From Nitrospiria bacterium (GTDB taxonomy: Bacteria; Nitrospirota; Nitrospiria; SBBL01; JAADHI01), in the NCBI GenBank assembly GCA_046756925.1, contig JBHHXH010000004.1, positions 1 through 61,882 on the forward strand: a DNA stretch of 61,882 nucleotides, read 5' to 3'. Below the pieces are notes generated by a model. That model ran no database searches and was not told the DNA's origin. It saw nothing but the letters and a program-made list of their open reading frames with translations. Below are positions 3,706-56,270 of the stretch, piece by piece. Numbering within the stretch: position 1 is the first letter of the stretch; every line of letters begins with the position of its first letter. The translations under genes were made by a program, and so were the position numbers.

Positions 3706-4830
3706 CTAAGGCCTTCTGCTTCTAAACCCGAACATCCTTGGAGAGGCGTGCGCAACAACCTTCCTAAACAAATAAAAACACAAGGGCGCAAACACGAGGA
3801 TTGGAAGCGACGCAGCCAGGATCGGAGGAACCAGGCGAATGGAGATCAGGTAATCCCCAAACGTCAACAACATGTAATAAAGGACGATGATGCCGACCCC
3901 GGCGCTAAACCCGCCCAGCGGGGCGATTCGGCCGGAGAGGATACCGAGCGGCATGCCGAGGATACAAAACACAAAAGCCGCCGGGGAAAACAAAAACCGC
4001 TTATAGAAGTCCGAAAGAAGGCGTAAAGACGCAACATCCCGCCCCTGCGTATCCGCGATGCGCCGTTTGATTTCGCGATAGCCCGGAGGATCTGAAGCGT
4101 TTTGAAAACCCGAGAGCGGAGAAAGACGAACTTTTAAGTCGTAATTGGCAAAAACCATACGTTGGTATCCGCTGCCGTTTTTTTCCCGTTGCTGAAGAGA
4201 GCCGGTGATCAGGTGGAGCCCAATGGTCTCCGATGCGGCATCATGGGTTAATATCCCTTTTTTTGCGACGATCACCGTGGGCAAGTCCCGGTTTCTCTGA
4301 TCGTAGATAAATACGCCTTCCAATTCTGAAAAAGTCGGCATGGCATCCACATAAATCGTCATCCCCGAAAAGCTCCCGTTGAAGGTTCCCGCTTCAAGCC
4401 CGACACTCGCCCGGCTGACAAGCACTTTCATGCCGAGCTTTTTAAACGCTGCCTTTGACGATTCGGCGTGAAACCCCATGAAAAGGGTAATCAGGGAAAC
4501 GAGGATCGAAAAGATCAGTACCGGGCGCAGCAGGCGAAAAAAACCAATTCCGTTGGCATACATCGCAATAATCTCGTTGTCGGAAGACAGCCGGTTAAAC
4601 GTCGTCACCGTCGACAACAAGACCGCCATTGGAATGGTAATGAGAAAAAAAGAAGGAAGCAGCCCTAAAAAAAGTTCCCCCACACTTGCCAAGTCAACGC
4701 CCTTGTCCAACACCAGCTCCATAATATAGAGAATCTGCTGCATGACCAAAATAAAAGTAAGAATCAGTATCCCTAATAAAAAAGGTCCGATCAGTTCCTT
4801 GAGGATGTATCGATCGACACGTTGAAACAT
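3706..4830 (-). CDS. lptF: LPS export ABC transporter permease LptF
   Basis: DRYILKEL and RLSSDNEIIAMYANG motifs; start taken at ATG 4830. Confidence 0.85.
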   Translation of the reverse strand: MFQRVDRYILKELIGPFLLGILILTFILVMQQILYIMELVLDKGVDLASVGELFLGLLPSFFLITIPMAVLLSTVTTFNRLSSDNEIIAMYANGIGFFRLLRPVLIFSILVSLITLFMGFHAESSKAAFKKLGMKVLVSRASVGLEAGTFNGSFSGMTIYVDAMPTFSELEGVFIYDQRNRDLPTVIVAKKGILTHDAASETIGLHLITGSLQQREKNGSGYQRMVFANYDLKVRLSPLSGFQNASDPPGYREIKRRIADTQGRDVASLRLLSDFYKRFLFSPAAFVFCILGMPLGILSGRIAPLGGFSAGVGIIVLYYMLLTFGDYLISIRLVPPILAASLPILVFAPLCFYLFRKVVAHASPRMFGFRSRRP

Positions 4831-5955: not shown

Positions 5956-6469
5956 AGGGGATCCGGTTCATCTCTTTACCGAATCGGTGACGCTTCCAAA
6001 TGGAAAAAAAACAACCTTGGAAATCATACGCCATCCCGGCGCGGCGGCGGTCGTCCCCCTCCTAAGCGACGGCACCGTGGTGTTGATCCGCCAATACCGT
6101 TATGCCGCCGGTGGATTTATTTACGAAATCCCTGCGGGAAAGCGCTCCAAGGGAGAATCGCCGGAGTCCTGTGCCCTTCGGGAAGTCGAGGAAGAAACCG
6201 GATACCGTGTCGGCACCCTAAAAAAACTCACGGCGATCTTGACCGTACCCGGGTTTTGCGACGAAGTCATCCATCTCTATCTGGGAACGAACCTCGTCGC
6301 CTGTGTACAGCAACTCGATGAAGATGAAGTCATTCAAATTATAAAAATACCCATCCGCAAGGCAATGAAAATGATTGTGGATCAGCACATCCGCGATGCA
6401 AAAACGATTGTTGCGCTGCAACTGGCCTATGCGGAAGCGCAGCGATCCGGGCTGATTAAAACATCATAA
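5936..6469 (+). CDS. nudF: NUDIX hydrolase, ADP-ribose pyrophosphatase-like
   Basis: Nudix box GKRSKGESPESCALREVEEETGY; also HPGAAAV, QYRY and DAKT. Confidence 0.85.
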   Translation: MKQEIYKGDPVHLFTESVTLPNGKKTTLEIIRHPGAAAVVPLLSDGTVVLIRQYRYAAGGFIYEIPAGKRSKGESPESCALREVEEETGYRVGTLKKLTAILTVPGFCDEVIHLYLGTNLVACVQQLDEDEVIQIIKIPIRKAMKMIVDQHIRDAKTIVALQLAYAEAQRSGLIKTS

Positions 6470-6477
6470 GGAGGCGC

Positions 6478-7944
6478 ATGTCGGAAGACATTATTTTCGA
6501 AAAGAGCGTAAGTGGACGAAGAGGCATCACTTTTCCGACCGAAAGCATCGAGGGCATCTCGCCCGACACCTATATCCCGAAAAAATACTTGCGGGAGACG
6601 CCGGCGCCCTTGCCGGAAGTGAGCGAGAATGAATTAATCCGGCACTACACCCGGCTCTCCGAGGAAAACTACGGCGTCGACAACGGTTTTTATCCGCTCG
6701 GATCGTGCACGATGAAATACAATCCAAAAATCCATGAAGATCTCGCACGGGTTCCGGGCTTCTCCGACATCCACCCGCTCCAGCCGGAAGAAAGCGTCCA
6801 AGGCGCGCTCGCCCTGCTCTACGAACTCGCCGAGATGCTTGCGGAAATATCGGGAATGTCGTCGATTTCGCTACAACCTGTGGCCGGTGCGCAGGGAGAG
6901 ATGTGCGGGATGCTGATGACGCGGGCCTATCATCAATCATTGGGAAAACAACGGCGTTTCGTTGTGATCCCCGATTCGGCGCATGGGACCAATCCGGCTT
7001 CGGCCCACCTTGCCGGATATACGGTTCAGACGGTTCGTTCAAATCGGGAGGGGACCATCGACCTGGAAGATCTCGCCAAGGTGGTCAATCACGACACAGC
7101 TGCCTTGATGCTGACCAATCCGAACACGCTCGGTCTATTCGAGCGGCAAATCGGGGAGGTGGCGAGGGTCGTTCATGATGCGGGAGCGTTATTGTACTTC
7201 GATGGGGCGAACCTCAATGCCCTACTTGGCTTGACCCGGCCGGGGGACATGGGTTGCGACATTATTCATTTTAATCTTCATAAGACTTTTTCGACGCCCC
7301 ACGGCGGGGGCGGACCGGGAGCGGGCCCGGTGGGTGTCTCGGAGGCGCTGGTCCCTTTTCTACCGTCTCCGCAAATCGAAAAAAAGGAGGCGACTTATTA
7401 TCTTGACGGCCAACGGCCTCAATCCATCGGCCGGGTTCACGGGTTTTACGGAAACTTCGGCATCTTGGTTCGCGCCCATGCCTACATCCGTCGATTGGGC
7501 GCGGCAGGTCTTTCGGCCATCAGCCGAAACACCATCATCAATGCAAACTATTTAAAGAAGCGTCTCGGCGAAGACTATTTCATCCCGATGAACCGTCCCT
7601 GCATGCACGAATTTATCGTATCGGCCAAAAACTTTCGGGATGCGGGGATTAACGCCTGGGATATCGCCAAGCGCCTTATCGATTACGGCTTTTACCCCCC
7701 CACCGTGAATTTTCCTTTAAACATCGAACAAGCCTTGATGATCGAGACACCGGAGAGCGAGGCTCGGGAAACCCTCGATGCATTCGCGGAAGCCATGCAC
7801 CAGATCCGTCGAGAGATCGATACGGCGCCCGACAAGCTGAAGGCTGCGCCGCAATCCCGTTCCGTCGGACGCATGAACGAGGTACAAGCGGCGAGGCATC
7901 TCGATACAAGGTATGAACCAAAAAACAGAATCTCAAAACCGTAA
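6478..7944 (+). CDS. gcvPB: Glycine dehydrogenase (decarboxylating) subunit 2
   Basis: Motifs YPLGSCTMKYNP, SAHGTNPAS and HFNLHKTFSTPHGGGGPG (PLP lysine); AGGAGG RBS. Confidence 0.95.
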   Translation: MSEDIIFEKSVSGRRGITFPTESIEGISPDTYIPKKYLRETPAPLPEVSENELIRHYTRLSEENYGVDNGFYPLGSCTMKYNPKIHEDLARVPGFSDIHPLQPEESVQGALALLYELAEMLAEISGMSSISLQPVAGAQGEMCGMLMTRAYHQSLGKQRRFVVIPDSAHGTNPASAHLAGYTVQTVRSNREGTIDLEDLAKVVNHDTAALMLTNPNTLGLFERQIGEVARVVHDAGALLYFDGANLNALLGLTRPGDMGCDIIHFNLHKTFSTPHGGGGPGAGPVGVSEALVPFLPSPQIEKKEATYYLDGQRPQSIGRVHGFYGNFGILVRAHAYIRRLGAAGLSAISRNTIINANYLKKRLGEDYFIPMNRPCMHEFIVSAKNFRDAGINAWDIAKRLIDYGFYPPTVNFPLNIEQALMIETPESEARETLDAFAEAMHQIRREIDTAPDKLKAAPQSRSVGRMNEVQAARHLDTRYEPKNRISKP

Positions 7945-8037: not shown

Positions 8038-9705
8038 ATGCAATCACATGATGTTTTGATTGTCGGCGCCGGGTTGGCCGGAATGCGGGCCGCCGTTGCC
8101 GTGCCTCCACACCTCGACGTGGGGATCATCTCGAAGGTGCATCCGGTGCGGAGCCATTCCGTTGCGGCAGAGGGCGGCATCAATGCCGCCATACGAAACG
8201 AAGACTCTTGGGAATCGCATATGTACGATACTGTCAAGGGAAGCGACTGGCTGGGAGATCAAGATGCAATTGAGGTGCTCTGCAAATCCGCCCCGGAAGA
8301 CATTATGGCCTTGGAGCGCATGGGCGCTCTTTTTTCAAGAGATCCGGAAGGCCGTATCGCCCAACGGAATTTCGGCGGCCTCGGCTTTCCAAGAACCTGT
8401 TACGTGGCCGATCGCACCGGGCACGCCCTCGTTCACCTGCTCTACGAACAACTGATCAAACGGGCGGCAAAAGTCTACGAAGAATGGTACGTCACTTCAT
8501 TGATTATCGAAGACGGCGACTGTTGCGGCGTGGTGGTTCTCAACCTCTTTACCGGGGCATTGTCTCGTATCCGCGCCAAGGCCGTCATTTTAGCAACCGG
8601 GGGATATGGACGGGTCTATCTCGTTTCGACCAACGGCTTGATCAATACGGGGGACGGAATGGCCATGGCCTATCGCGCCGGAATCCCTCTCCAGGATATG
8701 GAGTTTGTGCAGTTTCATCCGACCACGCTCAAAACAACCGGTATCTTGATCACCGAAGGGGCACGCGGAGAAGGAGGCTATCTTTTTAACGTACGGGGCG
8801 AACGCTTTATGGAACGCTATGCCCCCAAGGCCTTGGAGCTGGCCAGTCGCGATGTCGTCTCTCGGGCCGAGTATCGTGAAATCCTCGATGGACGGGGAAT
8901 CGAAGGATGCGTCATGCTCGATCTCAGGCATCTCGGAAAGCAAAAAATCATGGAACGGCTGCCGCAGATTTGGGAACTTTCGATGACCTATGCCGGCGTC
9001 GACCCGATCGAAGCGCCGATCCCGGTGACACCGGGCGTCCATTATTCGATGGGCGGCATTCCAACCAATATCCATTGCGAAACACCCGTGCCCGGACTGT
9101 ATGCCGCAGGGGAATGCGCCTGCGTGTCCGTACACGGCGCCAATCGACTGGGAGGCAATGCCTTAATGGAAACCATCGTGTACGGCCGTCGTGCGGGACG
9201 TTGCGCCGCAGAATACGCGGAGAAGACCGACTTCAAGTCCATTTCGGAGGCCCGTCTCGCCGAAGACAAAGCCCGGGTTCGGGCGCTATTGGCGCGAAAA
9301 GAAGGAGAACCCATCGGCCCGATCCGCGAGACGATCGGAACCGTAATGGCGGAGCATTTCGGTATACTGAGAACGAAGGACCGCATGGAAAGGGGCCTGG
9401 AAAAATTACAGGAGATCCGTCCAAGATTATCGAATTTTAGGCTCCAAGACCACGGATCCGTTTTCAACCTTGAATTGATCGACGCCCTACAACTCCAATC
9501 CATATTCGACCTCGCTGAGGCAACGGCCGTCGGCGCCTTGGCGCGTCAAGAGTCCCGAGGCGCCCACTCCCGTACGGACTTCCCGGAACGGAATGACCTC
9601 GAGTGGATGAAACATACGCTCATCCGGTGGAATGAAACGGGTCCCCGTCTGGAATACAAGCCGGTCACTGTGACGAAAATTCCGCCCGAAGAACGGAAAT
9701 ATTGA
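8038..9705 (+). CDS. sdhA: Succinate dehydrogenase/fumarate reductase flavoprotein subunit
   Basis: GAGLAG, RSHSVAAEGG (covalent-FAD His), EFVQFHPT, HYSMGG, HGANRLGGN and ESRGAH. Confidence 0.88.
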   Translation: MQSHDVLIVGAGLAGMRAAVAVPPHLDVGIISKVHPVRSHSVAAEGGINAAIRNEDSWESHMYDTVKGSDWLGDQDAIEVLCKSAPEDIMALERMGALFSRDPEGRIAQRNFGGLGFPRTCYVADRTGHALVHLLYEQLIKRAAKVYEEWYVTSLIIEDGDCCGVVVLNLFTGALSRIRAKAVILATGGYGRVYLVSTNGLINTGDGMAMAYRAGIPLQDMEFVQFHPTTLKTTGILITEGARGEGGYLFNVRGERFMERYAPKALELASRDVVSRAEYREILDGRGIEGCVMLDLRHLGKQKIMERLPQIWELSMTYAGVDPIEAPIPVTPGVHYSMGGIPTNIHCETPVPGLYAAGECACVSVHGANRLGGNALMETIVYGRRAGRCAAEYAEKTDFKSISEARLAEDKARVRALLARKEGEPIGPIRETIGTVMAEHFGILRTKDRMERGLEKLQEIRPRLSNFRLQDHGSVFNLELIDALQLQSIFDLAEATAVGALARQESRGAHSRTDFPERNDLEWMKHTLIRWNETGPRLEYKPVTVTKIPPEERKY

Positions 9706-10063: not shown

Positions 10064-12955
10064 ATGATCGTCGATACCCATGCTAAAAAACACAAGGACA
10101 CCACCGGCTGCGAAAAACGCAAAAAGTTTTTAAGTCTAAAGTGGAAAGTCCTCTTATGGGCCAGCCTGGTGCTTCTGATTGTCAATGTGTCCTTTCCTTT
10201 TCTCCACTATCGACATCTTATCGGTCAATTCGATGGACACCGCAATGCAGTCCACAAACAGTATGCAAGAGAATTCGAAAAACGATTGAAGCAAACTGCG
10301 GATCACTTGCAGCGCCTTGGAAGCCTCATCCCGTCTCTCGACGGGATGAGGGCGGCTTTGGCATCCCATGAAAACGATAAGATCGCTGCGGTCTTCGATC
10401 CACATTGGACACGGATACGATCGAACAATCGCATCGATACCCTTCGATTTTATTCGGACGCCGGAAAAACCCTGGCAAGTTGGGGTGCGAGTGGTGCGCT
10501 CGCTGAACAAGACCCCTTGATTAAGACATGGATCGACAAGGCAGCGGCGAGCGGACATCCCCTAATGGCCCTTTTATGCCGAAGGGAATGTACCCAATAT
10601 GTACTGACACCGATACGATTGGATGGAAAAACGGCCGGAACCCTTTTATTGGGAACCGCGCTTTCCAGGATGATCGCCGATTTTCAACAGATATCCGGCA
10701 TCGATATCGGACTGATCGTCAAGAGCGGAGGAAACCACACCCCCTCGGCACACCCTTCTGCCGGGATACCGTCATGGAACGCACATGTCGCATCCCTCAC
10801 CCACGAGGGTCATACCTTGCCGCTTCTAAAATGGATCGCAGGGCAAAACCCTTCGCTGGACCCTGCGAAAACAAGTCGAAAGACCACCTTCAATCAGATC
10901 GACTATGACATCGGGTTTATCCCCCTGCACGGACTGGCCGACGGCGGATCGGGACACCTTGTGATTATAGGCGATATCTCCGAAGCGCTCTCCAAGATAC
11001 GGATCGTCACGAAAAGAAGTTTGTTGGCCGGGTTCTTAAGCCTCCTGTTTTCGGAAGTATTCCTTTTTATGATCCTCTCGAACCCGACCACGCGCTTGGT
11101 GCGGATCGCCGAAACCCTGCCGCTGCTGGCGCAAAGCGCATTTGGATACGTTCGATCATCCGTCCGATGGAAAGAAAAGCACTGGAGGACCGACGAGATC
11201 GATATTCTGGGGAATACCGCCATTTCTCTTTCATATCAATTGGAAAAACTCGAAAACGAAGTACAAAAACGGACCAAGACCCTTGCGGACAGGATGGACG
11301 AACTTTCCACGGAAAAGGCCTTTGTGTCCAATCTTCTCGACACGGCGCGAGTCATCATCCTGACACAAAACGACACGGGCGAAATTGTGATGGTCAATCA
11401 ACACGGAAGCGATCTCACCGGCTACCCGCAAGGGGACTTGTCGGGAAGGAAGTTCACTTCGCTCCTGGCCCCCGATCAGACCAGCCCCGATTTGGCGGAG
11501 GCGCTGATCAAGCTGGTGGACGGGAAACAGGGGGATCTCTCGCACGAATCGGTCATCTCCTGCCGGGATCGCTCGACACGGCATGTCCTATGGTTTCATT
11601 CGCATCTGGCGAGGAAGGACGCGAAAGATCCCGCCATTCTATCCGTCGGGCTCGACTTTACCGCACGGAAACGCGCGGAGCTGCGTCTGTCTTGGTTGGC
11701 CGATCACGACTCCCTGACCGGTCTCTTCAACCGGAGACGCTTTCAAAGCGAAACCGACCGCATCCTCGCCGAGGCAAAGCGCTACAACCGATCGGGCGCC
11801 TTATTGGTATTCGATCTCGACCAATTCAAATATGTCAACGACACCCGAGGACATCATGCAGGAGACATGCTCCTGAAAGCGGTGGCGGACCACCTGTCTC
11901 GCATCGTCCGGTCCACCGATTTTGTCAGCCGCCTGGGAGGCGATGAATTTGCGCTGGTCATCTCCGAAGTCGGTCAAGAGGGGGCCGTACAGGTCGCCGA
12001 AAAAATCATCGAATTCTTAAACGAAGTCGAGATCCCCGTCTTTGAAGATTGCTACAAAGTGTCGGCCAGTATCGGGATCGCCCTTTTTCCGAAACACGGC
12101 ACGACAGTTCAAAAACTCCTTTCGAATGCCGACATCGCCATGGTGCAGGCAAAAGATCGAGAGCGCGGCAACTGGCACATCTTTTCGGGTCAGGAGCCGA
12201 TCAAGGCACGCATGCAGAAGCGCGCCTATTGGGAAGACAAGATCAAACAGGCCCTCGACAAGGACGATTTCGTACTCCACTTTCAACCGGTTCAAGATGT
12301 TTCGAATGGGTCGACCTATTTTTACGAAGCCTTGTTGCGCATGCATCATGACGAAAAGCTGATCCTACCAGGCGCCTTTATCCCGATTGCCGAAACATGC
12401 GGCCTGATTTTTCCGATCGACCACATGGTCCTCAACAAGGTGATTGCCGCACAGGCGCACTTGGCAAGCAAAGGCGTGCAGACCACCTTTGCGATCAATC
12501 TTTCGGGCCATGCATTCAACGACCGGGAACTTCTCCCCCACTTGGAAAAAACCTTAAGGCATTCCGGCGCCGATCCGAAATCCATCATACTGGAAATCAC
12601 GGAAACCGCAGCGGTATCCGACCTCGTCGCCGCCTGTACCCTCATGGAAGAGATAAAAGCCTTGGGCTGCCGTTTTGCGTTGGACGATTTCGGGATGGGA
12701 TTCTCTTCATTCAACTATATGAAACAATTGCCGGTCGACTTCGTGAAAATCGGAGACACCTTTATTCGAGATCTGTCCACGCACGCCGACGACCAGATCT
12801 TCGTGAAATCCTTAAGCGAAGTCACAAGGGGCCTCGGGAAAAAAACCGTCGCGGAAGGCGTCGAAGATGAAAAAACCCTCGCCTTGCTCCGCGAATATGC
12901 CGTGGATTTCGCCCAAGGCTACCATGTAGGAAAACCGGCGCCGACAATCGTTTAA
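10064..12955 (+). CDS. Membrane sensor (Cache-like periplasmic region)-PAS-GGDEF-EAL c-di-GMP enzyme, copy 1
   Basis: Two TM segments around a ~270 aa periplasmic region, PAS, HDSLTGL, RSTD I-site, GGDEF, EALLR, EITE, DDFGMG, AEGVE and QGY. Confidence 0.92.
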   Translation: MIVDTHAKKHKDTTGCEKRKKFLSLKWKVLLWASLVLLIVNVSFPFLHYRHLIGQFDGHRNAVHKQYAREFEKRLKQTADHLQRLGSLIPSLDGMRAALASHENDKIAAVFDPHWTRIRSNNRIDTLRFYSDAGKTLASWGASGALAEQDPLIKTWIDKAAASGHPLMALLCRRECTQYVLTPIRLDGKTAGTLLLGTALSRMIADFQQISGIDIGLIVKSGGNHTPSAHPSAGIPSWNAHVASLTHEGHTLPLLKWIAGQNPSLDPAKTSRKTTFNQIDYDIGFIPLHGLADGGSGHLVIIGDISEALSKIRIVTKRSLLAGFLSLLFSEVFLFMILSNPTTRLVRIAETLPLLAQSAFGYVRSSVRWKEKHWRTDEIDILGNTAISLSYQLEKLENEVQKRTKTLADRMDELSTEKAFVSNLLDTARVIILTQNDTGEIVMVNQHGSDLTGYPQGDLSGRKFTSLLAPDQTSPDLAEALIKLVDGKQGDLSHESVISCRDRSTRHVLWFHSHLARKDAKDPAILSVGLDFTARKRAELRLSWLADHDSLTGLFNRRRFQSETDRILAEAKRYNRSGALLVFDLDQFKYVNDTRGHHAGDMLLKAVADHLSRIVRSTDFVSRLGGDEFALVISEVGQEGAVQVAEKIIEFLNEVEIPVFEDCYKVSASIGIALFPKHGTTVQKLLSNADIAMVQAKDRERGNWHIFSGQEPIKARMQKRAYWEDKIKQALDKDDFVLHFQPVQDVSNGSTYFYEALLRMHHDEKLILPGAFIPIAETCGLIFPIDHMVLNKVIAAQAHLASKGVQTTFAINLSGHAFNDRELLPHLEKTLRHSGADPKSIILEITETAAVSDLVAACTLMEEIKALGCRFALDDFGMGFSSFNYMKQLPVDFVKIGDTFIRDLSTHADDQIFVKSLSEVTRGLGKKTVAEGVEDEKTLALLREYAVDFAQGYHVGKPAPTIV

Positions 12956-48242: not shown

Positions 48243-49238
48243 TTATTCAGCGCTCGCAAACTCCGAAACAAAGGCCGCATGGTCCGATTCGGGATACTTG
48301 CTGTCATAGGTATAGGGAAGGCTTTCGTCGTGCAAGTTTTCGTTGTAAATCTCCGAACGACGAAAATATGGCAGCAACGATTGAGAAATCAACATATGGT
48401 CCAGCAAATTCCCCTGCCCGTGATGGTAGTGACTAAAACGAATGGACGAGGGGATGCTGCTGTTGCATGGAACCAAAACGCGAGACCGCAGTTCGGGGTT
48501 GCTCGTGTTTTCCACTCGGCCGCAAATCGCCTCGACCGGCACCTCTCCCGGTTCGGCATTGAAATCGCCGCAGACCAGGATCTGGGCCGACACATCTGCG
48601 TCAAAAAGCTTGTCCACCAAGATCCGGGTTTCCAAGGCTTGGCCGACGCGTTTAATAGACGAAAGGAAATAGCCCTCCGCCCAACCTGCGGCACTTTTCC
48701 ATGAAAACCGGGTTTTTTGCCCTGGAATATGGGAGGCCAAGCGCGATTTCAAATGCAGGTTGAGCACGTGGACGGTCCCCAACTGCGGATGTTCGATCTG
48801 CGCGTAAAGGATGGGCCGCTCCCAGCCCAGGTCCTTGGCGTCGATGTCCGGCGGGTCAGTGGCGGTGACCTTACGATACCGCAATGCATCGATATGATCG
48901 TTTCGATATTGCGCGAATTTCGTGATCGGGTGCGCCGAAAGGATTACGAGATTTCTCAGGTTATAGGGCACGTGATCCGTCGTGAGCGTCGTAGCCTGAT
49001 GATAGCCGAAGTATGGCGTCCCTGTCAGCAAAAAATCCAATGCCGATAGTTCCCGGCTTGGATTTGCGGAAGTATGATCGGCGCGTTCTTGCCCGTGGAC
49101 CTCTTGCAGGCAAAGAATATCCGCCTGGAGTCGATTCAAGGTGGACCTGAGGACCGGGGCCCGAACCGAAAGGGCTGGATTTTTGTCGTTGTCTTTGTCA
49201 TCTAAATTTTCAACATTGAAAGTGGCGACTCTGAACAT
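48243..49238 (-). CDS. Endonuclease/exonuclease/phosphatase family protein
   Basis: ATFNVENL, LQEV, HLKS, GDFN, LDH and SDH motifs. Confidence 0.88.
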   Translation of the reverse strand: MFRVATFNVENLDDKDNDKNPALSVRAPVLRSTLNRLQADILCLQEVHGQERADHTSANPSRELSALDFLLTGTPYFGYHQATTLTTDHVPYNLRNLVILSAHPITKFAQYRNDHIDALRYRKVTATDPPDIDAKDLGWERPILYAQIEHPQLGTVHVLNLHLKSRLASHIPGQKTRFSWKSAAGWAEGYFLSSIKRVGQALETRILVDKLFDADVSAQILVCGDFNAEPGEVPVEAICGRVENTSNPELRSRVLVPCNSSIPSSIRFSHYHHGQGNLLDHMLISQSLLPYFRRSEIYNENLHDESLPYTYDSKYPESDHAAFVSEFASAE

Positions 49239-49313
49239 GCCGTTTCCCTCCCAGAGACAGATGTCTTGGCTTGATCACAACAAGCCGCTTCGCATTCCGG
49301 ATCTAAAAATCGC

Positions 49314-50078
49314 TTATGACCTCAAATCCAGGCCCACGGGACAATGGTCGGAGCCCATGACCTCGTTCAGGATGCCGGTGGCTTTGATGGTCTCTTTTAA
49401 ACCCGGCGATGTTAAAAAGTAGTCGATCCTCCAGCCCACGTTCCGCTCGCGCGCGGCGGCGCGGAAGCTCCACCAGCTGTACTTGACCTGATCCGGATGC
49501 TGATACCGAAAGGTATCGACAAAGCCGGCGGCGTGAATATTGTTCATGCCGTCGATCTCCTCCTGCATGTAGCCCGCGGTTTTGTTGTAGTTGGCCTTGG
49601 GGCGGGCCAGGTCGATGGGCTGGTGTGCCACGTTGAAATCGCCACAGGCGATGAGCGGTTTTTCCTGTTGCAGGGCAAGCAGGTAAGCCAAAAAATCCGC
49701 ATCCCATTGTTGCCGGTAACCCAAACGCTTCAACTCCGCACCCGAATTGGGCGTGTAGACATTCACCAAGAAATAGTGCGCGAATTCAAGCGCAATGACG
49801 CGGCCTTCCCGGTCGTGTTCCTCAATACCGATGTCGCAGCGCACGGCAAGCGGCTTCCTCTTGGTCAGAATGGCCGTGCCAGAATACCCTTTTTTCACCG
49901 CCGAATTCGAATAGATATGATACCCGTCCAAATCCTCCAAGGCCTCACGGACTTGATTGTCCTGCGCCTTGGTTTCTTGAAGGCACAGGACGTCCGCTTG
50001 CATGGCCTTGAGTGAGGCCGGGAAATCCTTTTTCATCACAGCGCGGATGCCGTTGACGTTCCATGAGACAAGACGCAT
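49314..50078 (-). CDS. xth: Exodeoxyribonuclease III
   Basis: SWNVNGIRA, CLQETK, KGYSG, EGR, YTPN, GDFNVAH, WWS.R, GWRIDY and SDHCP. Confidence 0.95.
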   Translation of the reverse strand: MRLVSWNVNGIRAVMKKDFPASLKAMQADVLCLQETKAQDNQVREALEDLDGYHIYSNSAVKKGYSGTAILTKRKPLAVRCDIGIEEHDREGRVIALEFAHYFLVNVYTPNSGAELKRLGYRQQWDADFLAYLLALQQEKPLIACGDFNVAHQPIDLARPKANYNKTAGYMQEEIDGMNNIHAAGFVDTFRYQHPDQVKYSWWSFRAAARERNVGWRIDYFLTSPGLKETIKATGILNEVMGSDHCPVGLDLRS

Positions 50079-50162
50079 GGGCTAGCTCCTGTGTGATGGT
50101 TTTTGATTCACAATAATTGATTCCTCGAAATAATGCTGCACACTCTGTGGGATTGTGGCTGG

Positions 50163-50186
50163 TTCCATCTGTCTGTTGTAAGGCAC
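50163..50186 (-). mobile_element. Partial attC-like site downstream of the HEPN gene
   Basis: 20/24 nt identical to 52121-52144 (TTCCATC-N4-TGTTGTAAGGCAC); the second arm is not recognisable. Confidence 0.5.
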
Positions 50187-50303
50187 GCAGTGCCGATCAA
50201 CAAATGGATCTCATCATCCGCATTGTTGATGAGGACATTTTGCGCCCCCGACAATCGTGGCGCGGTTTTTCGCATCACCGGGGTATGCATTGCGAATCAC
50301 CCA

Positions 50304-50987
50304 CTAAAGCTTTGCGGCTATCTGCTTCATCCGCTCTACTACGAATACTGCCCGGGTGGTAGCGGTACCCCCATGTGCTTTCAAGTAACCCTCAATTGTT
50401 CTTAACTGCGCCTTGAGAGGTGCATTAGTGGGTTCACAAAGCGCACCGATCTTTTTCTTTAATTCACTTTTTGCATCGGAGCTGTAATGACTAAGATAGT
50501 TCCTCAAGCTAATCGCATAGTCATAGAATTCTGAATCGTCGCGATCTAAGGAGAACTTCTTTGCAAACCGACTTGCCAGTAAGGTGTTTGCATTCGTGGA
50601 GAGCCTTTCTGCATCCTTCACCGATATATTCCATCCTTTTTGATCAAGGAGGCTTGCTAACACAGTCCGAGTTAAATTCCCAGGACGGGAGAAAGTAATT
50701 GCTCGACGGCAGCTCTTACCGAACTTGTCTTCTACAGACTGTTTTATTCGCTCTTCGAGGGATGTCAGCGCCTTTGAAGGGCTCTTCTCTATGTAGGCCA
50801 GGATGATATCATTCTGGAATGATTCCCAAAGAACCGCAGCTTGAAGGACAAACTGTACTACAAGTTCGTTTTCAAGGACAGCTTCATTTCTTTTGTTATG
50901 TATGGCGAGTTTGAGTTCGCCATGATTCGAAATCAGCCCTTCAATGCGCTTAGTGAATTTTCGAACCGTTGTATCGCGGAGCGTCAT
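50304..50987 (-). CDS. HEPN-like protein (putative RNase)
   Basis: Helical protein with the N-terminal ..WE motif and RNYLSH (RxxxxH); 8 nt after the DUF262 stop. Confidence 0.7.
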   Translation of the reverse strand: MTLRDTTVRKFTKRIEGLISNHGELKLAIHNKRNEAVLENELVVQFVLQAAVLWESFQNDIILAYIEKSPSKALTSLEERIKQSVEDKFGKSCRRAITFSRPGNLTRTVLASLLDQKGWNISVKDAERLSTNANTLLASRFAKKFSLDRDDSEFYDYAISLRNYLSHYSSDAKSELKKKIGALCEPTNAPLKAQLRTIEGYLKAHGGTATTRAVFVVERMKQIAAKL

Positions 50988-50995
50988 AAGCCAAG

Positions 50996-52036
50996 TTACA
51001 CAAAGATGTCATGGAGAATTTTGACACGGAGCTTCCGTTTTGCCAACTTGTTCGGCCCTTCAATTACCGTGGAATAGTATTTCGCCGGCATGCCGGTGAG
51101 TTCGTCAGGACTCTTCCGCAATTCTTTATCCAGTTTGCGCAAGTGGCGCTTGCCAGCGGAAAGATCTGATGGTGTTCTGACTGCAGTGTTTATCTGCACC
51201 GCTGCCCCAAATAAAGCGTAGAAGTCGGCTTTCTTGGAAAAGCGTGTGTCTCGAATTACATCGACAATCGTTTGAAGGGAGCGAAGTACCGTGCGAAACC
51301 GTCGCATGAACTGCTTTTTTTTCGGGAAGTCAACATCATAATTGGCGTAAAACCGATCCAATGTCTTTTGCTGATCCTGCGGACCATCAATTAAAAGAAC
51401 GAAGAGCTCGCTAACAAATTCTATGTCTCGCATCCGTTGGGAATCACGGCGCGAGAAAAACTGAAGAGTATCCCAAAACGGCTCATTTGCCAATGCCTCT
51501 ACCGCTTCGACAAATTCACCGAAATACTGCGAATGACGCATCTCCTGCTTGCTGAGTCGTTCGACTACGTAGTTCAACCGTCGAAACAGGGCTCGAATTT
51601 CTGTGTCGTCCCAGCCTCTTAATTCTTGAACCGGTAAAGCGTAGTCCCATATCGCGTCTTGCAGGTGGGGCGGTAGTTGGGAGTATTTTTTCCCAATGTG
51701 TGGTTTGTATCCATCCGACACAGGATAGGACTTAGCAGTCGTGGCAACCAAGGCGTACTCATCCTGCATGTACTCCAAGATCGCGTTCAAGCGCTGCTGC
51801 CCATCAACAACATCATAGAATGTTTTTCTTTGAACACCGGCTCCTTCAGTGACGATATTCAAGAAAACTTGCGGGATAGGACATCCCGCAATAAGACTAT
51901 CGATGAGGAAGCATTTTTGGCCAATTGACCAGATAGGATTTCGTTGGTATCGCGGCTTGAGACGGAGTGTCCGTATCTTGTACTCGCCAAAGAACCAACT
52001 GAGTGCTTGTGTATTGGGTTTGGGTGGCGAACTCAT
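50996..52036 (-). CDS. DUF262 (ParB/GmrS-like) domain protein
   Basis: P.YQR..IW, LIDS...G.PIP, VVDGQQRL and F.RLN motifs. Confidence 0.88.
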   Translation of the reverse strand: MSSPPKPNTQALSWFFGEYKIRTLRLKPRYQRNPIWSIGQKCFLIDSLIAGCPIPQVFLNIVTEGAGVQRKTFYDVVDGQQRLNAILEYMQDEYALVATTAKSYPVSDGYKPHIGKKYSQLPPHLQDAIWDYALPVQELRGWDDTEIRALFRRLNYVVERLSKQEMRHSQYFGEFVEAVEALANEPFWDTLQFFSRRDSQRMRDIEFVSELFVLLIDGPQDQQKTLDRFYANYDVDFPKKKQFMRRFRTVLRSLQTIVDVIRDTRFSKKADFYALFGAAVQINTAVRTPSDLSAGKRHLRKLDKELRKSPDELTGMPAKYYSTVIEGPNKLAKRKLRVKILHDIFV

Positions 52037-52072
52037 TTCATATCGTGCCTTTTTCTCGTCTGGTTAATATTA

Positions 52073-52144
52073 GCCTCAAACGCTGCGGATAAGGAGCACA
52101 CCTTGATAGAGTATAACTGTTTCCATCCACTTGTTGTAAGGCAC
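52073..52144 (-). mobile_element. attC-like integron recombination site upstream of the DUF262 gene
   Basis: Minus strand gccttacAAC-aagt-GGATGGA...TCCTTATCC-gcagc-GTTtgaggc: ~70 bp imperfect palindrome with AAC/GTT ends and inner boxes. Confidence 0.6.
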
Positions 52145-52307
52145 CAAGGTCTGGGGGAACAAGTTATCGTTTGCCTTCTGGATAACATTGCAAGCTGCAT
52201 GATCGCGCCAACTTCTTAAAGAGACGCCAGTTTATGGCGATCACCTTAGAAAAAGCAATCTTAAGCTTGGGGCTTTGCTTTCCTCGTTAATCTGTTCTCA
52301 CTTCTAT

Positions 52308-52388
52308 TTATAGATGCCGACCCCAAAACTTTTTCATTACCAAATAGGTAAAAGAGGCAGATCAGACGATACACAGAAGACCATTGAG
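52308..52388 (-). pseudogene. 3' remnant of a 2-TM potassium-channel-family gene, copy A
   Basis: Reads LNGLLCIV*SASFTYLVMKKFWGRHL*; TGA at 52364-52362. Confidence 0.6.
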
Positions 52389-52470
52389 GGATGGATGCCA
52401 GTAGTGTGGAGGGGTGAGTGGGCAGGGATGGGCTGCGCGACCTATATGTGCGTCTCAGACTGCTCCCTTC

Positions 52471-52785
52471 TTATGCGGCATCTAATGGCGAAATTTGGTC
52501 AATCTTTTTCTTAATGTACTTTTCCGCATCCCAGAGATCGACGGCAAGTTGGGCGTTCAGCCAAAACTCGGGGCTGTTGCCGAACAAGCGGGAGAGACGC
52601 AGCGCCATCTCGGGGCTTACTGCACGTCTTTCCCGAAGCAGCTCATTCACCGTCTGCCGCGACACCCCCAAGGCCTTGGCAAAACGCGACACCGTGAGGT
52701 CGTAGTCCGGCAGGAAATCTTCCCTTAAGATCTCACCGGGGTGGGTGGGACGAATCTTCCTTTTCCTTTTGTTGGCAATGCTCAT
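52471..52785 (-). CDS. higA: HigA/VapI antitoxin
   Basis: PTHPGEIL.EDF, HTH and MALRL...FG.SPEFWLNAQ...DL. Confidence 0.92.
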   Translation of the reverse strand: MSIANKRKRKIRPTHPGEILREDFLPDYDLTVSRFAKALGVSRQTVNELLRERRAVSPEMALRLSRLFGNSPEFWLNAQLAVDLWDAEKYIKKKIDQISPLDAA

Positions 52786-52798
52786 ATCACACCTCGAT

Positions 52799-53080
52799 TT
52801 AGTGATAGTCGGTTATTTCGACCTCGTAGGCGTCTCCTTTGGAAAACCGAAAACAAATCCGCCATTGTTCGTTTACGGCAATAGCATGCTGGCCTTTTCG
52901 ATCCTTGCGGAGTTTATGAAGCCGGTTACTCGGTGGAACCTTCAGGTCTTCCACGCGCGTTGCCAAATCGATAAACTCCAATCTTCTTAGGGCCCTTTTC
53001 CAAATTTCCGAAGGAAGTCGCTTCGACCTCCCTGTTTCGTACAAGATTTGCGTATGCTGATCCGCAAAGGTCTTGATCAT
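52799..53080 (-). CDS. higB: HigB (RelE-like) toxin
   Basis: MIKTFAD, DL.VPPSNRLH.L, I.VN.QWRICF and EITDYH. Confidence 0.92.
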   Translation of the reverse strand: MIKTFADQHTQILYETGRSKRLPSEIWKRALRRLEFIDLATRVEDLKVPPSNRLHKLRKDRKGQHAIAVNEQWRICFRFSKGDAYEVEITDYH

Positions 53081-53086
53081 CGATCG

Positions 53087-53115
53087 AGTGTAATCCGTCA
53101 CGTGACAAATGTCAA
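53087..53115 (-). promoter_or_regulatory. higBA promoter with palindromic operator (leaderless)
   Basis: TTGACA-N17-TACACT with GTCACGTGAC (53097-53106) in the spacer; ATG is 6 nt downstream of the -10. Confidence 0.75.
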
Positions 53116-53198
53116 CATGAAAAGGAATCTATGTTTTCTATTGAAGGAACAGATAAACATCCTCTCAGTAACAAACATCATTGTGCTTGGGTGATGTT

Positions 53199-53324
53199 TT
53201 ACCGATCCAAACCCCAAAACTTTTGCATTACAAGGTAAGTAAAGGAGGTAGACTAGGCAATGAGCAGTAGGCCGTTTAAGGCCTCGATTTCGGGGATGAT
53301 GCGGAAACGGGCCGCTTCGATGGC
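53199..53324 (-). pseudogene. 3' remnant of a 2-TM potassium-channel-family gene, copy B
   Basis: Reads FRIIPEIEALNGLLLIA*STSFTYLVMQKFWGLDR*; TAG at 53255-53253. Confidence 0.65.
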
Positions 53325-54038
53325 TTATTTGTTGCCCTGCAAATAGGCCTGTCGATCGGCCTCTGGAAATTTTTCAATCGCGTAGCGCAGCATGGTGCGC
53401 GGCATGGCCTTGTAGTGTTTTAACAAAAATCCCTCTTCCACATCCCGGTTTCGCTTGCCCACTTCGCGCAGCATCCATCCCGCGGCCTTGTGGATCAAAG
53501 CTTCTTTGTCGTGCAACAAACATTCGGCGATGGCCAAGGTGTCCGAAAAGTCTGCTCTCTTGACGAAGTGAAACGTGGCCATCACGCCAATCCGGCGCTC
53601 CCATAAGTTGCTGGAACGGATCAGGCGATAGATCGGTTTCCGATCTTTATCGAATAAATAAGCACCCACAATGTGCGCGGCGGAGGCATCCACCAAATCC
53701 CAATTGTTGATGAAGGGGGTATGCCTTAGATAAGATCGATAAATCGTCTCTTTTTCGGCGCGCGTCCTTTCAGAAGCATATTTTGTGACGAGCATCAACA
53801 GGGCAAATAGCCGGACTTCGTGATAAGGAGACTTCAGCAGTTCCAAGGTCTCCTCCAAAGACACCGTACGATATCTTCCGACACATTTCCTGAGGGTGGG
53901 CACCCGAATCCCCAGGAAGCGGTCCCCCTCGCCATATTCCCCCGGTCCCGTCTTAAAGAATCGCTGCGAATGTGCTGCGATATGGGGATCGCTCAACTCC
54001 TGCAGCGTGTCCATGATTTGTTTTGTTCGAACGCTCAT
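53325..54038 (-). CDS. DNA alkylation repair protein (AlkD-like)
   Basis: FFKTGPGEYGEGD.FLG..VP, HE.R, NNWDLVD, LWERR, KA.GWMLRE and PRTMLRYAIE. Confidence 0.9.
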   Translation of the reverse strand: MSVRTKQIMDTLQELSDPHIAAHSQRFFKTGPGEYGEGDRFLGIRVPTLRKCVGRYRTVSLEETLELLKSPYHEVRLFALLMLVTKYASERTRAEKETIYRSYLRHTPFINNWDLVDASAAHIVGAYLFDKDRKPIYRLIRSSNLWERRIGVMATFHFVKRADFSDTLAIAECLLHDKEALIHKAAGWMLREVGKRNRDVEEGFLLKHYKAMPRTMLRYAIEKFPEADRQAYLQGNK

Positions 54039-54196
54039 AAATTGAGATAGATACTATTTATGCGTCGTTGTCTTGGGTCTTCCTTTGTGCAGGGCGGCCA
54101 AACTGCGTCCAAGTTTTCTGGTGACCCTGACTCCGTCGCCATCGATTTTTCTTTTCCGGTCCTTATCGTCTTTGAAAATCGTTCGGCGGCAATCGC

Positions 54197-54314
54197 CCCT
54201 CTATCAATAAGACAATGCCGGTTTGGAACGACGACTCGTGCAGTCCGTGGCATAGATTCTAAAATTATAGAAGTTGAAGGAACGCGTCAAGAAACGAGTG
54301 TCTGTCCCTATTTT
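54197..54314 (-). pseudogene. N-terminal relic of a REP-associated (Y1) tyrosine transposase with an upstream GGGACAGACAC motif
   Basis: MPRTARVVVPN...RG from ATG 54253 resembles RAYT N-termini, then similarity is lost. Confidence 0.5.
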
Positions 54315-54384
54315 CGAAAAGCGCCGTCTCCTGTTCGCCAGCAAAGGGGGGAGCAAGCGATTTTTCCACGATTTACATATGGTA

Positions 54385-54413
54385 TTGAACTTTAAGCATC
54401 CTTGTGGTATAAA
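54385..54413 (+). promoter_or_regulatory. Putative sigma70 promoter of the csp gene
   Basis: TTGAAC-N17-TATAAA with TGn extension; implies a ~140-nt 5' UTR. Confidence 0.55.
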
Positions 54414-54558
54414 ATAATAGGTCCATCGTAGAAAGTGCACAAAAAATGTTTTATTGGCTGTAGCGCTTTTTTATGTGCTGCAGTTTTTTTTTGCGGATTT
54501 AGGAAACTTTGGACATTTCGTCAGCAGATCGCTGATGACACACGAGGAGAAAACAACA

Positions 54559-54762
54559 GTGAGCACAGGAACAGTAAAATGGTTTAACGGCAGTAAAGGC
54601 TATGGTTTTATTACTCCTGAAAACGGGGACGATCTTTTCGTTCACTTTTCAGGCATCGTTGGAGACGGCTACAAATCCCTCGAAGAGGGCGATGAAGTCG
54701 AATTCGAGGTGACCCAAGGCCAGAAAGGCCCGCAAGCCATCAATGTCAGTAAAGTTTCCTAA
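54559..54762 (+). CDS. cspA: Cold-shock protein
   Basis: GTVKWFN..KGYGFI, DLFVHFS and G.KGPQA.NV; GTG start after GAGGAG. Confidence 0.95.
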
Positions 54763-54777
54763 CCAGGGATCTTATTG

Positions 54778-54827
54778 AAGCAAAAAACCCCCACCGGAAC
54801 GATATTCCGGTGGGGGTTTTTTTGCTT
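54778..54827 (+). terminator. Strong intrinsic (probably bidirectional) terminator
   Basis: AAGCAAAAAACCCCCACCGGAA-cgata-TTCCGGTGGGGGTTTTTTTGCTT. Confidence 0.92.
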
Positions 54828-55025
54828 GCCCTTCATTCAATCCACAGGCACTGGGTGTGCCGCACTGATATCCCGGTCATACAAATCATCACCAGTCAAT
54901 AACTAGGAATTTCACTTATTCTTTAAACACCCGATTCTCCCAGTACATCACAGAACTGTCTTGTTTGACGGATTGATATAATGCTATGTTTGCGGCGCTT
55001 GATCGTCATCCTTTGAGGATAAGCG

Positions 55026-56270
55026 ATGAAACAGTTCGATGCCGTCATCATCGGGGCCGGGCCGGCGGGAGGCGCGTGTGGGCGGACCTTGTCGAAGGCG
55101 GGTTATCGTGTGCTACTCGTCGAAAAGGAGAAGGACTTCGCGGCCAAGGATTTCTCCAGCGGCGGCTCGACACTTGAGGTGCTGCGCGACTTCAACCTGC
55201 CGGAGGCCGTCGTCGGCGCCTATTGCCATCGGATTAAAATCGCCTCTTCCCATGATGCGCATGGTTGGGAGGCCACCGATCCCGTCGCACTGGTTCTCGA
55301 TTTCCAAAAGCTGCGTCGTTTTTTGTCCGAAGAGATGACCCGGCACCAAGGCGAAGTTCGGCTGGGCTGGACCTACGAAGGCCACGAACAAGAAAACGGA
55401 AAGACCCTCGTTTCGCTCAAACAAGCGGCGAGCGGCAAGACGCAAAGCATCGTCGGCCGCGTCCTCGTCGATGCCACGGGCACAGACCGGGAGGTCCTGG
55501 GGCGTGGCGAAAAAGACAGACATCCGGCCATTGTCGGCAGGGGCGTGGAATTTCTGCTTGAAGTCCCGGCAGAGGTCTATCGAATGCATGCCGGCACCCT
55601 CTCCTTTTTCATCGGCCAAAATTGGATGCCGCAGGGCTATGCCTGGATCTTTCCCATGGCGGCCCATCGATTGAAGGTCGGCGTCGGCCGGAATTTTCCC
55701 GACGAACAAGTGGTTCCCCACAAACAGTCCTTCGGCTTTTATTTAAACCGATTAATCGCGACCTGCCTTCAAACCCAGGATTACAACATCCTCGACCGGC
55801 ACGGCAAAACTCTCACTTACACCCTCCGTCAGCGCGACCGTCACTTCGATGAGAATGTCCTGGCCATTGGCGACGCCGTGTCCACCGTCAACCCACTCAC
55901 CTTCGAGGGAATCCGGCACGCGATGCATTCCGGGGCCGTCGCCGCCAAACATATCGCAGGATACTTGGAAGGACAGGACAGATCCTTTCGGAAATACCGT
56001 TCCGAGATACGCCGTCGTAGCGGTCTGCGTTGGTTGCTCTCCGAAGCCCTCACGAAGAAGATCTATCGCGAGCCAAAGGATGAAAAGGTGGATTTGATGC
56101 TCCAAGCCTTGAAAGCCTTCTCCCTTGCGGAATTAAAAGCCTTGGTCTTCGATTACCGCCTCGTCCCCGTGATGAAATTCGCACTCGACTACCGGGTCCT
56201 CGTCGCCAAAAGCGCCTTCCGCTTCTCCGGAAAGAAACGCCTCGAACCGATGGACTTGAACAAGCCATGA
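55026..56270 (+). CDS. FAD-dependent oxidoreductase, geranylgeranyl-reductase-like
   Basis: GAGPAG, VDATG, PQGYAWIFP and GDA.S.VNPL.FEGI..A..SG. Confidence 0.85.
   Translation: MKQFDAVIIGAGPAGGACGRTLSKAGYRVLLVEKEKDFAAKDFSSGGSTLEVLRDFNLPEAVVGAYCHRIKIASSHDAHGWEATDPVALVLDFQKLRRFLSEEMTRHQGEVRLGWTYEGHEQENGKTLVSLKQAASGKTQSIVGRVLVDATGTDREVLGRGEKDRHPAIVGRGVEFLLEVPAEVYRMHAGTLSFFIGQNWMPQGYAWIFPMAAHRLKVGVGRNFPDEQVVPHKQSFGFYLNRLIATCLQTQDYNILDRHGKTLTYTLRQRDRHFDENVLAIGDAVSTVNPLTFEGIRHAMHSGAVAAKHIAGYLEGQDRSFRKYRSEIRRRSGLRWLLSEALTKKIYREPKDEKVDLMLQALKAFSLAELKALVFDYRLVPVMKFALDYRVLVAKSAFRFSGKKRLEPMDLNKP

Follow-up and report, generated by a model that had tools for sequence, protein, structure and literature searches.

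The 61,882-nucleotide (nt) stretch of DNA analyzed here, from the assembly GCA_046756925.1 of a Nitrospiria bacterium (contig JBHHXH010000004.1, positions 1 to 61,882), is referred to as the window. It carries a two-gene module on its minus strand. Gene A encodes a predicted DUF262/ParB-like nucleoside triphosphatase (NTPase), and gene B encodes a HEPN protein. We regard this module as a probable horizontally acquired, self-contained anti-phage operon of the abortive-infection type, built on the PD-T4-2 design; its slot, with xthA on one side and higBA on the other, is variable. The two proteins have recognizable domains with conserved catalytic motifs, they are strictly paired across phyla, and the module is accessory and foreign in its host lineage. 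An earlier note on this DNA, made from the sequence alone, had read the pair as a DUF262 sensor/NTPase and HEPN ribonuclease (RNase) defence module packaged like an integron cassette. The type of module is supported. The system is not an unnamed one, its design being already that of PD-T4-2, and the cassette packaging is not supported. Taken as a discovery, the pair is ordinary; its apparent special interest came from the integron-cassette angle, which fails.

The DUF262–HEPN pair and its relatives

The earlier note placed a DUF262 gene and a gene for an RxxxxH protein 8 nt apart, which the open reading frames (ORFs), the Pfam matches and the motif alignments bear out (Table 1). The two genes probably form one operon with translational coupling, as the short spacer implies. 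The only Pfam match of gene A is GmrSD_N/DUF262 (E 3.7e-17, residues 26-172). In PADLOC, the protein matches NsnA (1.6e-34, residues 20-271) and PD-T4-2_A (1.6e-22). Its DGQQR motif lies in the string VVDGQQRL; an alignment of 44 sequences shows no variation at D78, G79, Q81 or R82 and almost none at Q80. Mean column identity across these 44 sequences, which come from many phyla, is 66%. An AlphaFold (AF2) model of gene A has a predicted local distance difference test (pLDDT) score of 81.6 and a helical C-terminal half. Foldseek with this model returned BrxU 7p9m first (E 3e-3, prob 0.99), followed by Noc, DndI, SspE and ParB. A DUF1524/HNH nuclease half was not found in gene A, the Pfam scan having matched GmrSD_N only. 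Relatives of gene A number 616 at E <= 1e-3, and the best 120 of the 616 are 62-100% identical. The genome holds a second DUF262 (GmrSD_N) match (contig C36:7012-7353, 8.5e-24), which covers profile positions 1-78 only.

The gene B family is clearly HEPN, with a conserved Rx4H in an all-helical domain. A word-based search found 19 sequences, the window's own protein included, and an exhaustive one returned 248 cluster representatives (E <= 1e-3). In the 19-sequence alignment, R162, N163 and H167 of the RNYLSH motif are invariant. In a larger family alignment of 88 sequences, R162 and H167 are the sole invariant columns. Members of this family match HEPN_RiboL-PSP (PF18735; 16/88, best E 1.5e-6), HEPN_Apea (8/88) and HEPN_Swt1 (4/88). 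The ESM Atlas puts gene B in a 'RiboL-PSP-HEPN' cluster (feature score 0.96, template modelling (TM) score 0.85 over 220 residues), and the structure model is all-helical (pLDDT 80.6). The HEPN assignment made in the earlier note is upheld by the invariant R162/H167, the family Pfam matches, the Atlas cluster and the two HEPN-toxin fold matches given below. Gene B alone also gave a sub-threshold PADLOC match to Cas13-ApeA (7e-5). A resemblance between family profile positions 65-138 and residues 317-390 of E. coli topoisomerase I (E 0.016-0.09, profile against PDB sequences) is weak and probably spurious.

A genome scan with the gene A alignment recovered 63 loci; a scan with the single protein recovered none. 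Among the 23 loci in which the A protein is at least 50% identical, an ORF of the gene B family lies directly downstream of gene A in 21. The two exceptions are a contig that ends 348 nt past gene A (L018) and a locus without a HEPN ORF (L034). The gap between A and B ranges from -104 to +24 nt, mostly 3-16, in the 20 loci with an intact HEPN ORF (L033, described below, set aside). Hosts of paired loci span at least 11 phyla or classes: Desulfobacterota, Alphaproteobacteria, Gammaproteobacteria, Verrucomicrobia, Acidobacteriota, Chloroflexota, Patescibacteria, Elusimicrobiota, Margulisiibacteriota, Zixiibacteriota and WOR-3. The A-B pair is a conserved unit across phyla. Mean identity to the window proteins is 39% for B versus 63% for A, and B is the lower of the two in 16/16 loci. 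The partners co-diverge, B evolving the faster. Viral contigs yielded only distant DUF262 relatives (25-32% identical, 7 loci) and no sign of phage carriage for the A-B clade.

One locus differs in its gene structure. In an Acidobacteriaceae genome (L033:3995-5600), a 465-amino-acid (aa) DUF262 ORF itself matches the HEPN profile, and a HEPN fragment of 79 aa comes after it. The pair here is either fused or frameshifted.

Farther out, DUF262 relatives that are 25-41% identical (L038-L077) have other partners. The partner scan covered 28 ORFs, namely 27 of 34 listed plus L061; near-duplicates (L041, L072) and short ORFs (L042, L053, L055, L060, L062) were omitted. A RelA_SpoT protein (PF04607) is the partner in 18 of the 28. 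These proteins are 312-347 aa long, and their genes often overlap the DUF262 gene by 4 nt (for example L040:5017-6000 and L075:5123-6130). The remaining partners are N6_N4 DNA methylases (5), a SIR2 protein (1), a Schlafen/S1 protein (1) and ORFs with no match (3). Other effector-type partners in the same position support the logic of a sensor with a swappable effector. In the paper library searched, no paper combines 'DUF262' and 'alarmone', and the pairing of DUF262 with a toxSAS-like protein may be an undescribed defence design.

Several known systems resemble the module. PD-T4-2 is described as a DUF262 protein with a HEPN protein assigned to PF18735, and DUF262 is also listed for Menshen and Dazbog (PMC10952713). 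Deletion of PD-T4-2 in its native strain, ECOR65, is reported to have raised T4 plaquing (Vassallo et al. 2022, PMC9519451). Table 1 of Anantharaman et al. 2013 contains an entry 'Ribo L-PSP-HEPN ... operon with ParB', and that paper predicts a role in defence or genomic conflict for ParB/RiboL-PSP-HEPN operons (PMC3710099). The Menshen paper counts PD-T4-2 among ParB-DUF262 systems (PMC12065111).

The module shares with PD-T4-2 two adjacent, co-oriented genes, of which the DUF262 gene leads and a small HEPN gene follows. Residues 19-286 of gene A align with positions 47-311 of the 363 in the PD-T4-2_A model (PDLC04027). To judge by its family and Atlas cluster, the HEPN partner is probably of the RiboL-PSP branch (PF18735), although the window's own protein does not match PF18735. 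The module differs in that gene B has 227 aa versus 168 positions in the PD-T4-2_B model, and in its host, an uncultured hydrothermal-vent bacterium, whereas PD-T4-2 comes from E. coli ECOR65. The ParB/Ribo L-PSP-HEPN operons have the same domain pairing and operon logic; their description (PMC3710099) is computational only. The clade described here shows unusual conservation of A and occurs in many phyla. The layout of gene A, DUF262 with a helical C-terminal half, resembles that of NsnA from Menshen (NsnABC; PMC12065111), and NsnA is its best PADLOC match. Unlike Menshen, the module has neither an NsnB ABC ATPase nor NsnC; the gene after A is the 227-aa HEPN gene, which has no ATPase match, and xthA comes next. 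The type IV restriction systems GmrSD, BrxU and SspE share the N-terminal DUF262 NTPase domain with DGQQR and supply top structural matches. They differ from gene A in carrying DUF1524/HNH, and the effector here is a separate RNase-type protein. The pair is thus neither Menshen, because NsnB and NsnC are missing, nor GmrSD, because DUF1524 is missing. We place it as a divergent new member of the DUF262 plus RiboL-PSP-HEPN kind, a design already named and validated as PD-T4-2.

Table 1. Positions in the window of the two genes, their motifs and the flanking repeats
Feature	Position	Strand	Description
Gene A	50996..52036	-	346 aa, DUF262/ParB-like NTPase (predicted)
Gene A DGQQR motif	51791-51805 (encoded)	-	residues 78-82
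A-B spacer	50988..50995	-	8 nt between the two ORFs
Gene B	50304..50987	-	227 aa, all-helical HEPN, probably RiboL-PSP-type
Gene B Rx4H motif	50487-50504 (encoded)	-	R162-N-Y-L-S-H167 (RNYLSH)
Direct repeat copy A2, upstream	52096..52144		24-nt core 52121-52144; inside imperfect palindrome 52111-52169
Direct repeat copy A1, downstream	50138..50186		24-nt core 50163-50186; left arm of imperfect palindrome 50164-50210
Short hairpin	50196..50230		35 nt; 8-bp stem ATCAACAA/TTGTTGAT, 19-nt loop, AAC...GTT

Accessory status and genomic slot

The module is accessory and foreign in its host lineage. Across 41 related genomes, the HEPN family profile found gene B in one, the window's own (G000), and in 0/40 others. 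The DNA of the module has no match in any related genome. The earlier note called the two genes AT-richer than the backbone, and they are, modestly: guanine-cytosine content is 46.9% versus 52.0% for the genome (standard deviation 3.3), placing them only at the 6.7th percentile among genome windows of equal size.

In the window, the module is flanked by the higBA pair (52471-53101) on one side and by xthA, after gene B, on the other. In a genome of the same genus (G002, contig C34), xthA and higBA keep this order, and another two-gene insert lies between them (L088:4733-7375). That insert consists of two hypothetical genes of 297 and 538 aa, unrelated to DUF262-HEPN and without a Pfam or PADLOC match. 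The different cargo indicates that the slot between xthA and higBA is variable and a hotspot for cargo.

Elsewhere, the surroundings of the module vary. In 18 other genomes, the genes beside it show no relation to one another and are mostly housekeeping genes (tRNA synthetases, gyrA, CTP synthase). Restriction-modification genes, serine recombinases, toxin-antitoxin (TA) genes and one insertion sequence (IS) 200-like gene occur there occasionally. At the closest genome locus, in Desulfatibacillum sp. (L015, A protein 79% identical), a gene with an IS200-like Y1 transposase domain (5965-6987) lies 225 nt downstream of the module.

Proposed function and alternatives

Several functional steps can be proposed by analogy with GmrSD/BrxU/SspE, PD-T4-2 and HEPN toxins, from which sensing, RNase activity, contact between A and B, and phage protection are inferred. 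Through a ParB-like NTP pocket and the helical half at its C terminus, gene A would act as a sensor or switch for invading, possibly modified, phage DNA or for a nucleotide cue. It would then release or activate gene B. Gene B would be the effector RNase, probably dimeric, and would use R162/H167 to cut host or phage RNA. Such cleavage would lead to growth arrest or abortive infection and so stop phage production.

A number of results weigh against this reading of the module. PADLOC, one of the tools suggested in the earlier note for finding an already named system, returned PD-T4-2_A and NsnA for gene A. The PD-T4-2_B profile (PDLC04028) has no match to gene B or to the whole genome at E <= 10, and it matches 0/88 members of the gene B family at E <= 0.01. 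Strict PD-T4-2 membership therefore fails on that feature. Gene A itself scores higher on the Menshen NsnA profile than on PD-T4-2_A. In Pfam, gene B alone scores below cut-off against HEPN_Apea (E 0.0066), and the window's protein has no match to PF18735. Foldseek with the gene B model returned nothing from the PDB at E <= 0.001. With VIA-align, two HEPN toxins alone matched at near full length, 5yep_B (Z 8.5, root-mean-square deviation (rmsd) 3.9 over 124 aligned residues) and 7ae2_A (Z 8.4, rmsd 5.0 over 124), and Z scores of 8.4-8.5 are in the range that the tool flags as common for helical proteins. The genomic context points the same way. Defence-specific PADLOC matches were found in 0/29 neighbouring ORFs between 34.8 and 61.9 kb, where only generic ATPase and cold-shock cross-matches appeared, and the mostly housekeeping neighbours in the 18 other genomes belong here too. 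With no defence-specific neighbours and higBA adjoining, the module behaves as a solitary islet and not as part of a defence island.

A first alternative is a plain TA or addiction module, in which the DUF262 protein would restrain a HEPN toxin, the locus would be stabilised and phage defence would play no role. HEPN proteins are the toxins of HEPN/MNT systems, and the near-full-length fold matches of gene B are such toxins. The module also adjoins a second TA pair, higBA, and stands as a solitary islet amid housekeeping genes. However, gene B is partnered with an NTPase of 346 aa whose DGQQR pocket is conserved, and such a partner is neither a small antitoxin nor an MNT protein. The architecture is moreover that of a system for which a phage phenotype is reported (PD-T4-2, PMC9519451). 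We consider a plain TA role unlikely, and TA and abortive-infection roles are compatible.

A second alternative assigns the nuclease to the other partner. The module would then be a modification-dependent, DNA-targeting system resembling restriction, with the DUF262/ParB protein as the nuclease and HEPN as a regulator or binding subunit. The closest folds of gene A are indeed the type IV restriction enzymes BrxU and SspE, plus DndI, and ParB-fold proteins are listed as DNases in the cited survey (PMC3710099). A DNA methylase is the partner in 5/28 distant DUF262 relatives. However, the DUF1524/HNH nuclease half that GmrSD, BrxU and SspE carry is missing from gene A. The Rx4H pair is the most conserved feature of the gene B family, a pattern that argues for an active RNase. 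A DNA-targeting system therefore seems improbable to us, more so than a plain TA module.

With an anti-phage operon as the preferred reading, the module indicates that the PD-T4-2 design is not limited to E. coli, and that horizontal transfer has taken one clade, as a solitary islet of two genes, into many bacterial phyla. This clade combines an unusually conserved sensor with a faster-evolving HEPN partner. Because the PD-T4-2_B profile misses that partner, current defence annotators probably do not call the clade; they could detect the HEPN protein with a profile made from the alignment of 88 sequences. A clade this well conserved is good material for structural and biochemical work on the mechanism of PD-T4-2-type systems.

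Flanking repeats and the integron-cassette question

The module is bounded by a direct repeat (Table 1). The earlier note had described a 20/24 copy downstream, and this repeat is real: the two 24-nt cores match at 20 positions, contain a 13-nt exact core and extend to 49 nt at 71%. In a shuffle control, 0/100 shuffles reached 2 matches. The upstream copy lies within a 59-nt imperfect palindrome (folding z -1.6 on the plus strand, -3.17 on the minus strand), and the downstream copy forms part of another (z -2.26 and -3.68). In each hairpin the shared repeat is paired to a different partner; the hairpins are therefore not homologous. The AAC...GTT hairpin that had been pointed out downstream also exists, with an 8-nt stem, and at 35 nt it is too short for attC.

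Other identities for these elements were considered. A repetitive extragenic palindrome (REP) or miniature inverted-repeat transposable element (MITE) was rejected, as the repeat core has no copy in a related context elsewhere in the genome at <=1 mismatch. A duplicated promoter was rejected because a sigma-70 scan found no promoter in either copy, and intrinsic terminators because the hairpins have no T-runs. Ends of the IS200/IS605 type were also considered; the two hairpins are non-homologous. The regions upstream of xthA in relatives show no similarity to the direct repeat.

The earlier note took the flanks for those of an integron gene cassette. The module would be a promoterless two-gene cassette bounded by attC, or part of a cluster of attC sites lacking integrases (CALIN), moved by the integron integrases (IntI) of the genome. 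In canonical form, attC is a 57-141-nt imperfect palindrome whose 5' base carries RYYYAAC and whose 3' base carries GTTRRRY. Like a cassette, the module is a small unit without its own recombinase. It has hairpin-capable flanking repeats and an adjoining TA pair, higBA, of a kind common in cassette arrays, and its genome encodes IntI. Both flanks hold imperfect palindromes of 46-59 nt, able to form hairpins, which fold better on the minus strand (z -3.2, -3.7). On the plus strand, 52111-52169 starts with GTATAAC (6/7 to RYYYAAC) and ends with GTTATCG. Two integrases score above the TIGR02249 cut-off of 265 bits (C57:204-1145, 450 bits; C33:526-1461, 364 bits), a third falls just below it (C111:1150-2073), and IntI above the cut-off occurs in 16/37 genomes of the order. 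The statement that no intI is in the window is correct and extends to the whole contig, C4; it does not extend to the genome. The three integrase genes lie at contig ends.

The anatomy of the flanks does not fit this account. The ~70-bp attC-like palindrome proposed at 52073-52142 is not a palindrome: it folds no better than shuffled sequence (z +0.84, +0.08), and 161/200 and 101/200 shuffles fold at least equally well. At 52111-52169, the R' box GTTATCG matches 4/7 positions, and R''/R' complementarity is 5/7. In the downstream palindrome, GTT lies 5' of AAC, the reverse of attC order, and the only AAC...GTT hairpin is the 35-nt one. The direct repeat, as noted above, pairs differently in the two hairpins. 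As a positive control, attC-like sites were located beside intI in relatives (L096:8701-8763 and 9031-9119; L100:12084-12205 and 12638-12759). The three that were folded gave z -2.5 to -3.1. These control sites share an R''-N7-8-TCAAS half-site, which is absent at the locus; the window has 1 unrelated match, and the genome has 22 versus ~31 expected by chance. Five attC-like sites from relatives align poorly with one another. Our home-made attC scanner is crude, giving ~1 match per 3 kb of window, so a weak match means little and only negative anatomy counts. De novo attC arrays were not found in the genome, nor was an assembled cassette array beside the IntI genes.

Copies of the module elsewhere agree with this. 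The flanks are not shared between copies: no flanking direct repeat of >=12 nt was found in 18 other module loci, and the repeat is specific to this pair, its core having no related copy elsewhere in the genome (<=1 mismatch). In 8 other copies compared, DNA similarity does not reach beyond the ORFs; at 66-70% DNA identity this is weak evidence. No tyrosine integrase (PF00589) was found in 126 neighbour ORFs of those 18 loci (126 of 130 listed, the 4 overlapping gene A excluded). Without canonical R''/R' boxes, attC architecture, the half-site signature or conserved flanks, integron-cassette packaging is not supported, and we consider it very unlikely indeed.

The 24-49-nt direct repeat around the 1,958-bp unit is most simply read, by analogy with higBA, as an insertion scar, either att-like or a target duplication, and not as an integron attC. 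In the window, higBA lies between two copies, diverged from each other, of the 3' terminal part of an Ion_trans_2 channel gene (52290-52400 and 53181-53300). G002 likewise has channel 3'-end copies at L088:3640-3760 and 4450-4600, the second downstream of higA, and the channel gene is intact only there (L088:3316-3744). The higBA flanks look like an insertion that duplicated the end of its target gene. Two points tell against a scar around the module. The parallel with higBA is the only one. In addition, no metagenome contig over 49700-52600 joins across the module, and no empty site or excision joint was seen; these contigs come from three hydrothermal-vent runs of one study, two possibly of the source sample, and contigs drop rare variants, so this is no evidence of absence.

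A broader interpretation, which we find improbable, joins the two cases. The repeats around DUF262-HEPN and the ~75-90-nt channel-gene duplication around higBA would mark a recombinase-less, cassette-like movement of two-gene conflict modules. Insertion would be site-specific, catalysed in trans, would duplicate local sequence and would be distinct from classical attC recombination. The integron integrases of the genome, acting on non-canonical sites, are one possible catalyst.

Two minor features lie beyond higBA. An Rfam scan over 49000-55200 gave nothing at the DUF262-HEPN locus. Around the cold-shock gene at 54454-54762, it gave a sub-threshold match to the cspA thermoregulator RF01766 (region 54403-54823, 41 bits, gathering score 78). 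Runs of A and T border a perfect inverted repeat of 18 bp at 54782-54822, which resembles a bidirectional terminator.

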